This document shows positions 31,271 through 34,467 of a stretch of 64,000 nucleotides of DNA, in pieces. Under the pieces are notes generated by a model. It had not been told where the DNA came from. It searched no databases and worked only from the letters and a program-made list of their open reading frames with translations. The DNA comes from a virus (lineage: Duplodnaviria > Caudoviricetes): IMG/VR virus record IMGVR_UViG_2630968832_000007, positions 2,735 through 66,734 of that record; one strand, written 5' to 3'. Made by a program: the position numbers and the translations under genes. The stretch's first letter is position 1. The number at the start of each line of letters is the position of its first letter.

Positions 31271-32713
31271 TTGCAGGATTTATTGCCTACCGCGATTTAC
31301 GTTCGAGTGTCCAGCGAGATGCAAGCCGGCGAGGACCGTTACAGTATTCCGGAACAGATCGACCGCCTGCACAAATACTGCGACGCGCAAGGGTGGACCA
31401 TTGCCAAAGAATATGTAGATCCTGGGCACAGTGGAAGCAATTTGAAACGGCCCGCCATTCAGGAGCTGATTTCAGACGCCAAAAATGGTTTCATTCGCCG
31501 CGTTGTGGTTTTCAAATTGGATAGGTTGTCACGCTCACAACGTGACACCATGTATTTGATAGAGGACGTTTTCAAGGCTCACGATGTTGCCTTCGTTTCC
31601 CTTTCAGAAATGTTTGACACGTCCACTCCATTCGGCATGGCCATGATTGGGATTCTCTCTGTTTTCGCGCAGCTGGAGCGGGAAAACATTAAGGACCGTA
31701 TGAGCATGGGGCGTCTCGGCCGCGCCAAGCGCGGTCTGTGGCGCGGCGGCAGTAATACTCCTGTTGGATATGACTTCATGGATGGACAGCTCGTGATAAA
31801 CGAATATGAGGCTTTGCAAGTACGCGAAATCTTCCGTCTCTTCATTGATGAACAGTTGTCGTTCCATGCTGTATCCAGAGAAATGCAAAGTCGATTCACC
31901 AACAAGTACAGCACATACAACGATTCCGGATCCATCTCCACGATTCTCCGCAACCGCCTATACATCGGTAAAATAAAATACGGCACACAAGAATTTGATG
32001 GACAGCATCAACCTATTATCGACCGTGAAACCTTCGAGCGAGCACAGGCGCGAATTGAAGAAATCAGTCGAAATACCGGAGAGCATTGGAAGAACCCATA
32101 CCACGGCAAACACCTGCTCTCTGGTTTGATTTGGTGCGGGAATTGCGGCGCGCGTTATTTTTGTGTGACCACTAAAAGAAAGAACGGTCCGCAGTATAGG
32201 TATTACCAGTGTTACACCAGAAACGGAAGCAGTGATATGCGTAAAGCCGACTTCTGCAAAAATCCCAACTGGCGCGTGGAAAAATTGAATGCAGCAGTCA
32301 TGGAGGAGATTCGCCGGCTTTGCACGGACGAAAAATATTTCAATCGAATTGCCCGCGACGGTAAAAAGGAAAATAATAACGCCGGAAAGGAAAAGGCATT
32401 ACAGAGGGAACTTTCCAGTATCGAAAAGCAAATCAGTCGTTTGGTTGAACTGTACCAAATGGGAGTATCCGTGCAGGACATCGCCACGCGCATCCACGAC
32501 GCGCAGGAGCGCAAGAACAAGCTCACGCAAGAACTTTTATCGCTGAATCAACAAAGCCCTAAAAACAGGCGTCAAGAGGCTCTCACGTACATCCATGAAT
32601 TGAAGTGGTGTTTAGATGCGGATGACGTTGCAGCCCAGCGCCGCCTGCTGGATGCTCTGGTGAATAAGATAGTGATAACCGAGGGGGGATTCGAAGTTGA
32701 TTGGAAATTTTGA
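31271..32713 (+). CDS. Large serine recombinase (integrase of prophage 1)
   Basis: TTG start after GGAGGTG; AIYVRVSS, DPGHSG, VFKLDRLSR, recombinase domain, CGNCG zinc ribbon, coiled coil. Confidence 0.95.
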   Translation: MQDLLPTAIYVRVSSEMQAGEDRYSIPEQIDRLHKYCDAQGWTIAKEYVDPGHSGSNLKRPAIQELISDAKNGFIRRVVVFKLDRLSRSQRDTMYLIEDVFKAHDVAFVSLSEMFDTSTPFGMAMIGILSVFAQLERENIKDRMSMGRLGRAKRGLWRGGSNTPVGYDFMDGQLVINEYEALQVREIFRLFIDEQLSFHAVSREMQSRFTNKYSTYNDSGSISTILRNRLYIGKIKYGTQEFDGQHQPIIDRETFERAQARIEEISRNTGEHWKNPYHGKHLLSGLIWCGNCGARYFCVTTKRKNGPQYRYYQCYTRNGSSDMRKADFCKNPNWRVEKLNAAVMEEIRRLCTDEKYFNRIARDGKKENNNAGKEKALQRELSSIEKQISRLVELYQMGVSVQDIATRIHDAQERKNKLTQELLSLNQQSPKNRRQEALTYIHELKWCLDADDVAAQRRLLDALVNKIVITEGGFEVDWKF

Positions 32714-32740
32714 GCAAGTTTATACGAATTGTGGGTATGG

Positions 32741-32848
32741 ATGAATCCCTGCCCATGCGGCTATTTTGGGCACCCCACCCGCGCGTGCAGCTGCACGCCC
32801 TATGCCATTGAGCGCTATCTGCAGCGCGTTTCCGGTCCGCTGCTGGAC
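32741..32848 (+). pseudogene. comM: Internal 36-codon remnant of host comM/yifB (Mg-chelatase-like AAA+ ATPase), cut at both ends by phage insertions
   Basis: [36 protein letters not shown] matches the ComM/YifB motifs AAMNPCPCG and SGPLLDR(I/F)D; GC-rich relative to both flanks. Confidence 0.92.
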
Positions 32849-32856
32849 GCTATCGG

Positions 32857-34467
32857 TCACGCACTGACATTCGTAAAATTTTCAGTGTTTTCTCCCCCTT
32901 TATTTCTGTGTTTTCTTTCAATTAATTCACGCATATATTCACTGCCGTCATACAGTGTTATTTTAATTTTGTCATCATATACAGTAACATCATAAACGAA
33001 GTTGCGGATAAACGAATCTGGCAATTTTTCTGGAGATTCAAATTTTGACGCTAAAACTTTTCGCAAATTTACTATTCTTTCATCTTGTTTTCGCGTTATT
33101 TCCTCGACGCCAAAAGCTCCTACCTGTTTACGTTCTAAGTCTGCAATCTGTGAATCGATCTCTTCTTTCTTTGTTTTATACTCATATTTATTCAGAACGC
33201 CATCGACATACAAATCAAGAATTTTTTCCGTTTTTTGCCTAAGGGACCGAACCCGTTGCTCAATATTTTCACTGAAAAGAGTTGGAGCATTTCTTTGTGT
33301 GACAAGTTTGATGTTTGCAATCACAGCTTCAATCGCATCTTTTTCATTGTTTAAAGCTTCAAAAATACATGTCTTAATAATTGGAATGATATCTTCCTCA
33401 AACACTGTTCTTGCATTACAGCCACGTTTTGTACTCTTTCCGTACATCTTGTATTTACGACAAATCCAAATTTCATGTTTAATCTTTGACTTCTGTGTAG
33501 TATACGATGTATGCCACATTATCTCTCCGCATACTCCGCATCTCATCTTACCACTAAGGCAATATGGACCGGAAAAATGTCCAATGTATACCTCTTTTGC
33601 CGCGCCTTTATCTGATTCTATTTTCTTCTTTCGCCTTTCGTTTAGAATATGGTTGGCTTGTTCCCATATTTCTTCCGATACGATCGCTGGTACACCGCCA
33701 GGGATCTCCACCCATTCGTCTTCATCTGTAAATGTAGTTTTCTTGGTATAAAAATCCTTATGAGTTTTTCCGCCAACCAATACGCCTTTATATTTCTCAT
33801 TGCGAATCATACGTTTCAAAACAGAGATTGAAAAGATTGTTCCTGTACTTGATTTGATTCCCATGTCATCTAATTGAGTCACAATTTTGCGAAATCCATT
33901 ACCAGAGACATAGGATGAAAACACAAATCGCACTATTTCGGCTTCTTTTTCATTGATAAACAATTTTCCGTCTTTTTGATCATATCCCCATAATCGGTTA
34001 TTGCCATAAACAGTGCCGCCCTTTTGACTTCGTTTGGCTGCTGATAATATCTTCCTACTTAAATCCTTAGAATATTCTTCTGCCATCATTGCCTTGATTC
34101 CGGTTATGAGCGCATCATCAGGTGTATAAAATGCATGGTCCAAATAAAGATATAACTTCTTTTTAGTTCTATTTAGACGGTCAACAAACAAATACCAATC
34201 CAATACATTACGCATCAAGCGGCTTTGATCCTTAATGACGATGATATCGAATTTGTTTTCGAGCATATCTTCAAATAGCCTATTGTATCCCTCTCGTCCA
34301 TTGCGTGTAGTACCAGACTTTCCCTCGTCATAATAGTGATCGACTAAAACCCAATCTTCATGCGAATTAATGAATGCTTCAAGTTCTTCTCTCTGTTTTT
34401 TTAATGCATTTATTTGTTTCTCTTCCTCGGTTGAAACTCTCGCATAATAAACTGCTTTTTTCGTAAT
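32857..34467 (-). CDS. Large serine recombinase (integrase of prophage 2)
   Basis: Frame extends beyond the ORF-track start to include the catalytic [12 protein letters not shown]; inferred ATT start at 34467 after [20 protein letters not shown] zinc ribbon. Confidence 0.92.

Follow-up and report, generated by a model that had tools for sequence, protein, structure and literature searches.

The question raised by this locus is whether two prophages that lie side by side within one bacterial gene work together as a regulated switch for that gene or are there independently of each other. The locus is in a 64,000-nucleotide stretch of IMG/VR record IMGVR_UViG_2630968832_000007 (positions 2,735 to 66,734), which at its full length is called the window here and which corresponds to G000:C2:203220-267219 in the host genome. 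Near the middle of the window the genes for two large serine recombinases (LSRs), Int1 and Int2, converge on a short piece of the host gene comM (also called yifB). The original prediction for this DNA was that two unrelated prophages had inserted into comM close together, that the gene would be rebuilt only when both excised, and that the pair might therefore act as a two-key (AND-gate) switch. Our analysis upholds the structural part of this prediction and lends no support to the regulated function. The locus is probably the product of ordinary, independent double lysogeny at a hot-spot gene, comM/yifB, by two unrelated temperate phages. The main features, in window coordinates, are listed below (GC, guanine plus cytosine content; att, attachment site).

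1 to 32740, window part of prophage 1, about 55% GC; delimited by the GC profile, PHROGs matches and a 15-bp core found twice in C2
31271 to 32713, plus strand, Int1, the LSR of prophage 1; 480 aa from a TTG start, placed by Pfam domains and a ribosome binding site
32741 to 32755, plus strand, attR1 core, 15 bp ATGAATCCCTGCCCA; identical to the attL1 copy at C2:198943, with the Int1 crossover somewhere inside
32741 to 32847, plus strand, comM stub from MNPCPCG to SGPLLD; host DNA between both insertion points, 107 bp, of which 92 bp (32756-32847) are unique to the stub
32846 to 32847, plus strand, attL2 crossover dinucleotide GA; the sole identity common to attL2, attR2 and the natural attB2
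32848 to 64000, window part of prophage 2, about 40% GC; delimited by GC and PHROGs matches
32857 to 34467, minus strand, Int2, the LSR of prophage 2; 536 codons from ATT, with three Pfam domains

The identity of the stub was assessed using its translation and the remaining pieces of the gene. The translation of 32729-32860 (44 aa) matched Pfam Mg_chelatase (positions 156-193, E 1.6e-12) and TIGR00368 (positions 339-383). Comparison with natural uninterrupted comM contigs set the exact stub junctions at 32741 and 32847, and the stub lies between the stop codons of the convergent int1 and int2. The rest of the gene was found where it had been predicted to be, with a 5' piece at C2:197875-198957, at the far end of prophage 1 and 37 kb left of the stub, and a 3' piece at C8:88199-88586, at the far (right) end of prophage 2. 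In the whole genome the matches to TIGR00368 were collinear, covering positions 8-350 (C2:197941-198960), 339-383 (the stub) and 376-499 (C8:88185-88553), and between them they take in the ChlI N-domain, the AAA+ Mg_chelatase domain and the C-domain of the family model. The one other match, weak and of a generic AAA kind, fell within a frame of 911 aa on C3. No intact comM was found elsewhere by this TIGR00368 search of the whole genome, which is 98% complete, in agreement with the original prediction. The open reading frame (ORF) of 5' comM leaves the gene after ...AAAMNPCP and stops three foreign codons later, and the 3' piece opens, after a stop, with DRIDLHVEV.

The three pieces, of 361, about 31 and 129 codons, joined in frame in silico (1,083 nt, 92 nt and the C8 part) to give an ORF of 520 aa. 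The joined ComM was gap-free at both junctions when aligned to the intact ComM of relatives (12/12, 56-70% identity), and the natural uninterrupted comM sequence is the same as the predicted joins at both sites. From this anatomy comM can be rebuilt only if both elements excise, as had been proposed. At site 1 the 15 bp are common to attL1 and attR1, so the crossover dinucleotide cannot be placed within them. At site 2 only GA is shared, which fits the pattern of LSR attachment sites (short sites, a central dinucleotide and no target duplication).

The interval on which the original prediction was centred, 31271-34467, runs exactly from the start codon of one integrase gene to that of the other. 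The likely start of Int1 is the TTG at 31271, with GGAGGTG 5 nt before it, and its stop ends at 32713. The protein matched Pfam Resolvase (PF00239, E 1.4e-39), Recombinase (PF07508, E 1e-15) and Zn_ribbon_recom (PF13408, E 5e-14). The Int2 open frame runs from 34467 to 32857 on the minus strand without an ATG, GTG or TTG start, and an ATT at 34467 follows GGAGG. Int2 matched Resolvase (PF00239) with E 2.2e-23, and Recombinase (PF07508) and Zn_ribbon_recom (PF13408) were also above their cut-offs. Both integrase genes therefore appear to have a weak start codon, TTG or ATT, behind a good GGAGG site. The motifs YVRVSS (Int1) and YARVST (Int2) are present in the reading frames, and we take the serine nucleophile to lie within them. 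Int1 and Int2 share 23% identity over 312 aa, in keeping with the prediction that two different LSRs converge on an intact, in-frame piece of comM. Copies of Int2 with 100% protein identity were present on four IMG/VR contigs. More distant homologues of Int1 (L023-L025, 38-40% identity) had no comM fragment adjoining.

The two elements are separate, unrelated phages, as judged by their GC (55% vs 40%), the 23% identity of their integrases and the full virion module carried by each. The GC of the window is about 55% up to about 32.8 kb and about 40% beyond 33 kb. As ATGAATCCCTGCCCA occurs at both C2:198943 and C2:235960 (window 32741), prophage 1 measures 37,017 bp from core to core, with its left end about 4.3 kb beyond the left edge of the window. 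It is siphovirus-like, and its PHROGs matches include tape measure, major head, minor head, portal, large terminase, RecT and SbcC-like proteins together with a CI/LexA-like repressor and an anti-repressor. An integrase, a repressor and packaging, head and tail modules are thus all present within att-bounded DNA, the hallmarks of a temperate tailed phage.

Prophage 2 is at least 119,464 bp long and consists of C2:236067-267332 (31,266 bp) and C8:1-88198 (88,198 bp) with a contig gap between them. The GC of C8 is about 41% up to 88 kb and then about 59%. No overlap of the end of C2 with any other contig was found at k = 21-127, so the join of C2 to C8 is a deduction and intervening sequence is possible. 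PHROGs matches of prophage 2 within the window include NrdD, RNA ligase, an exonuclease V/Dda-like helicase, a DnaE-type polymerase, RecJ, DnaB and thymidylate synthase, and those in the low-GC part of C8 include large terminase, portal, tape measure and tail fibres. No repressor of prophage 2 was identified among the PHROGs matches, unlike packaging and tail genes. The gene set also includes NrdDG and dUTPase, in a temperate phage of a gut Clostridia host. No phage in the collection had a polymerase more than 35% identical to that of prophage 2, and among named phages Moorella MTATph1 and Brevibacillus Sundance came nearest; prophage 2 is therefore likely to come from an undescribed phage lineage.

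A search of metagenome contigs with a 40-mer of the stub yielded 34 contigs, each from a different assembly prefix. Comparison of the 60 bp on either side of the stub with the four flanks possible there gave the classes below.

Host, stub, host (uninterrupted comM): 19 contigs
Phage 1, stub, host: 6 contigs
Host, stub, phage 2: 5 contigs
Phage 1, stub, phage 2: 1 contig (L053)
Phage 1, stub, something else: 1 contig (L051, a phage-2 relative with the junction deleted)
Right flank missing: 2 contigs (L043, L044)

Unoccupied comM was the commonest state, making up 19 of the 32 classifiable contigs. Doubly occupied genes, with L051 counted, numbered 2/32 as compared to 1.75 expected if the sites fill independently (odds ratio 1.27, Fisher p = 1.0). 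The states with 0, 1 or 2 occupied sites envisaged with the original prediction were thus all found (19 empty, 6 and 5 single, and 2 double, one of these with its junction deleted), and the frequencies at which the four occupancy states occur together in nature fit independence. Among the 19 uninterrupted contigs, 11 held a complete open frame, 5 were open to the contig end and 3 (L036, L038, L054) had shorter frames. These contigs, with natural attB sequences equal to the predicted joins, confirm that the stub is host DNA and not part of a phage attP. In L051 the stub runs directly into the 3' end of an int2-like integrase gene (83% identity to int2) through the loss of 100 bp (window 32819-32918). 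The deletion removes attL2 and the last integrase codons, so this prophage would be locked in and comM unrecoverable. The int2-like copy of L051 is likewise without an ATG, GTG or TTG start ahead of the catalytic motif.

The occupancy states were also evident in IMG/VR contigs and in sequencing runs. One IMG/VR contig carries phage 2 only, as its Int2 and stub adjoin 5' comM without a break (99.5% identity over 2,517 bp). A second has both integrases in the same tandem order (96.3% identity over 4.6 kb), and L053 is identical to this tandem contig over its 2,006 bp and perhaps comes from the same source. For the runs, Logan contigs were aligned to window 30000-36000, and the runs holding the region were animal gut metagenomes and two isolates. 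Contigs from runs X2 (pig gut) and X3 (isolate) bridge Int1, the stub and Int2, and run X17 (isolate) has phage 2 only, with host 5' comM left of 32741. In run X1 a 107-bp unitig at depth 13.5 spans exactly 32741-32847 and branches at both ends, with loose ends into host 5' and 3' comM and contigs at depth about 6.5 leading into each integrase gene. These branches indicate a mixture of occupied and empty sites, from either strains or excision, which contigs cannot separate. Isolate X3 showed no loose ends at 32741 or 32847 in its contigs, a form of data that drops rare forms. Together the sequences point to at least two, and probably three, distinct doubly occupied genotypes (this genome, the type shared by X3 and IMG/VR, and L051).

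Under independent double lysogeny each phage's own LSR would recognize a different short target within the host's single comM/yifB, with Int1 recombining within the 15-bp core in the MNPCP codons and Int2 at the GA dinucleotide in the Asp codon of LLDRID. The two crossover points are 92-106 bp apart. The attB of a serine integrase is about 40-50 bp long, so at this spacing one insertion should spare the other attB and the sites could be filled in either order. comM would be off whenever either site is occupied. For it to be rebuilt, Int1 would have to recombine attL1 with attR1 and, independently, Int2 attL2 with attR2, and each excision presumably calls for a separate recombination directionality factor (RDF). 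We infer the enzymology of both integrases from their family. Excision would be expected to go with phage induction and not to be a service to the host.

The choice of comM by both phages fits what was seen of its conservation and its use by other elements. The original prediction had placed the insertions in two of the most conserved motifs of the family. When the non-overlapping 8-aa windows of 81 ComM sequences were ranked by conservation, GVLFLDEL (Walker B) came first, followed by AMNPCPCG and GPLLDRID, and both insertion sites fall in these second and third windows. The gene is near-universal in the host's family (377 of 401 genomes above the TIGR00368 cut-off), and the sites were probably chosen as the most conserved stretches of such a gene. 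A search for split comM in the same 401 genomes left 32 suspects that were re-examined, and the three candidates that were fetched all stop at contig ends. No further interrupted comM was found among 80 loci of other species: 78 extend to at least residue 500, and the other 2 are cut off by contig ends. Within the host's family, contig G253:C83 (L017) of a different species ends at ComM model position 347, which is site 1; a polymorphic insertion at this site may have broken the assembly.

The statement of the original prediction that comM/yifB is a recurrent integration target agrees with published work. In the survey of Durrant et al. 2022, homologues of the Mg-chelatase/ATP-dependent protease (ComM) are the target of 12.4% of predicted site-specific LSRs, Mg-chelatase/ComM is the top landing gene of serine integrases generally, and LSR targets are enriched in DNA-competence genes (PMC10083194). 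The sr1WO phages are described as integrating into the Mg-chelatase gene of Wolbachia (PMC9203015). In A. baumannii, comM is reported to be interrupted by many kinds of mobile elements with lower transformation as a result, and one reason proposed is that loss of ComM hampers the removal of mobile elements by transformation (PMC11472951). It is possible, and compatible with double lysogeny at a hot spot, that knocking out comM, a recombination helicase of transformation, also protects the mobile elements here from curing. With a popular target and two separate sites within it, double occupancy is expected. In the literature searched, the supplements of PMC10083194 excepted, neither a comM gene occupied by two prophages nor a switch made of two phages was found to be described.

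Several points weigh against independent double lysogeny. The split comM is undecayed and its frame is open: compared with 12 intact alleles, over up to 1,563 bp, it shows 1-7 nt differences. The two integrases and the four att sites are likewise all intact. A maintained reversible switch would be expected to look the same, and recent insertion accounts for it just as well. The survey is of limited size and rests on one exact 40-mer. Because its metagenome contigs do not each stand for an independent strain, it would miss a modest surplus or shortage of doubles. The adjacency of C2 and C8 was deduced and not assembled. The host also carries Spo0A (242 bits, cut-off 200) and SpoIVA (699 bits, cut-off 460), leaving room for sporulation-linked excision.

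These points bear most directly on the regulated two-key switch, a form of active lysogeny in which both prophages would have been co-opted and a host programme would trigger both directionality factors so that comM is rebuilt, as with SPbeta for spsM. The signals considered were sporulation in the mother cell, competence and SOS. For a two-key gate the most plausible would be DNA damage, by way of the LexA-like repressor of phage 1, or sporulation, by way of Spo0A and SpoIVA, and we regard both the switch and such a gate as very improbable. ComM is not known to take part in sporulation, the two prophages would each have had to be co-opted independently, and no RDF was recognized among the small ORFs beside the integrase genes. 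The elements are complete unrelated phages and not domesticated remnants, the unoccupied gene is the commonest state (19/32) with both single states present, the occupancy of the two sites fits independence, and doubly occupied L051 has lost attL2 and the 3' end of its integrase gene, leaving comM unrecoverable. The switch does draw support from the precise in-frame rejoining of the pieces, the undecayed comM, the intact integrases and att sites and the host's Spo0A and SpoIVA, as well as from the precedents of SprA/SprB, where a sigma-E/K promoter on sprB is described (PMC5499854), and of multi-excision nif restoration in Calothrix NIES-4101 (PMC11249958).

A related explanation is that at least one of the two prophages is locked in place in this strain, for instance by a defective RDF or defective regulation, so that the disruption of comM is permanent and the intact look reflects recent insertion. 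No junction k-mers of attB or attP were present in this assembly, and no free attP form was found among IMG/VR contigs, where the phage-1 end pattern had 0 matches and the phage-2 end pattern matched only 3 known integrated contigs. A PHROGs scan of the 6 small ORFs beside both integrase genes gave no annotated excisionase or directionality factor, and RDFs are stated to share no common motif (PMC5499854). The missing RDF, excision junctions and attP forms are weak evidence because assemblies drop rare forms. The junction decay in the related contig L051 and the weak start codons of the integrase genes (TTG and ATT) would also suit locked prophages. Set against this, the integrases, att cores and virion modules are all intact, and near-identical phages in several genotypes and at single sites indicate recent mobility, making permanent locking unlikely. 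An artefact, with the stub as a phage-borne, attP-flanking mimic of comM or the tandem as a mis-assembly, found no support beyond the idea itself, which rests on the short stub and the split of prophage 2 over two contigs. The stub is contiguous with host 5' and 3' comM in 19 contigs and joins 5' comM at 99.5% identity in the phage-2-only contig, and contigs of X2 and X3, an IMG/VR contig and L053 (maybe of the same source as the IMG/VR contig) all read through the tandem. These uninterrupted, phage-2-only and bridging contigs rule out both forms of the artefact for practical purposes. Independent double lysogeny thus remains the preferred reading, and it is the switch function of the original prediction that fell away.

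Prophages that split a host gene are known from several systems. In Listeria, a single prophage of the phi10403S/A118 type in comK has been shown experimentally to excise in the phagosome without lysis. It likewise splits a competence-related gene that can be rejoined, whereas here there are two elements, known from sequence alone. SPbeta in spsM of Bacillus subtilis (SprA integrase, SprB RDF) resembles the present case as a large phage with an LSR gene beside the att site, a split gene and an excision that restores the frame, in a host that also has sporulation genes; it differs in that comM, to our knowledge, is not a sporulation gene. For SPbeta, excision in the mother cell and a sigma-E/K promoter on sprB are reported (PMC5499854), whereas here the restoration is in silico, the elements are two and the insertions are polymorphic. 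In Calothrix sp. NIES-4101, nif genes are described as restored only after several separate excisions, shown in nitrogen-fixing cultures (PMC11249958). Those elements are developmentally controlled, in contrast to two complete phages without sign of host control. LSR elements in Mg-chelatase/ComM (YifB) genes (PMC10083194; sr1WO, PMC9203015) share the enzyme class, the target gene, the intragenic insertion and the flanking gene halves, and what differs here, so far as those sources describe them, is the presence of two unrelated LSR phages at two sites of one copy with a 107-bp middle piece. The AbaR/Tn7-like islands in A. baumannii comM (PMC11472951) use the same recurrent target gene, by transposition in a Gram-negative host as compared to serine integration in Clostridia.

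This locus is a fully resolved example in which the gene most often hit by serine integrases has been struck twice, in separate conserved motifs, by unrelated phages. It provides two natural, presumably orthogonal integrase/att pairs with att sites set from empty, singly and doubly occupied natural alleles. The four-state polymorphism is material for testing whether a second insertion into an already broken gene is free of cost, and whether disruption of comM protects elements from curing by transformation. Coupled, host-controlled excision of both elements would make the locus a phage-built logic gate of a new kind, though nothing here points there; such a two-input gate would be the first switch made from two complete, unrelated phages, rebuilding the ComM recombination helicase.

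The nearest named genomes to the host by ComM similarity were Owariibacterium komagatae (79%) and Gemmiger, Allofournierella and Subdoligranulum (about 70%). DprA is present in the host and ComEC gave partial matches only.

Two further genes near the integrases may have a bearing on induction and excision.

29088 to 29714, plus strand, repressor of prophage 1 with a helix-turn-helix and an S24 (LexA/CI-like) peptidase; phrog_4 transcriptional repressor E 3.5e-40, with UmuD-like and CI-like matches
34510 to 34635, minus strand, 41-aa ORF directly upstream of int2; weak match to phrog_2996 (family of unknown function), E 5.7e-4

The LexA/CI-like repressor suggests SOS-type induction of prophage 1. 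The 41-aa ORF is, by its position, a candidate accessory or directionality factor. In prophage 1, the minor head protein (phrog_581; window 12629-14371, minus strand) has a C-terminal domain that matches the ADP-ribosyltransferase family phrog_3895 (E 4e-13). In prophage 2, the last 20 kb or so of low-GC DNA before attR2 is a surface-polysaccharide cluster (C8:67513-84259; L067:13513-19405, L068:1384-12259) with genes for LytR-CpsA-Psr, UDP-glucose dehydrogenase, UDP-GlcNAc 2-epimerase, CapD-type dehydratases, glycosyltransferases and a priming sugar transferase. A tyrosine recombinase gene (C8:87038-87922; L002:354-1238) lies within about 300 bp of attR2. The cluster and this gene are either cargo of prophage 2 or a separate element nested inside it. 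Strain-variable cassettes were seen upstream of both integrase genes. At window 31074-31174, upstream of int1, 102 bases stand for 99 in isolate run X3, and at 34714-34868, upstream of int2, 153 bases are exchanged for 2,780 in the same run. Loose ends were present at both cassette positions in several runs.

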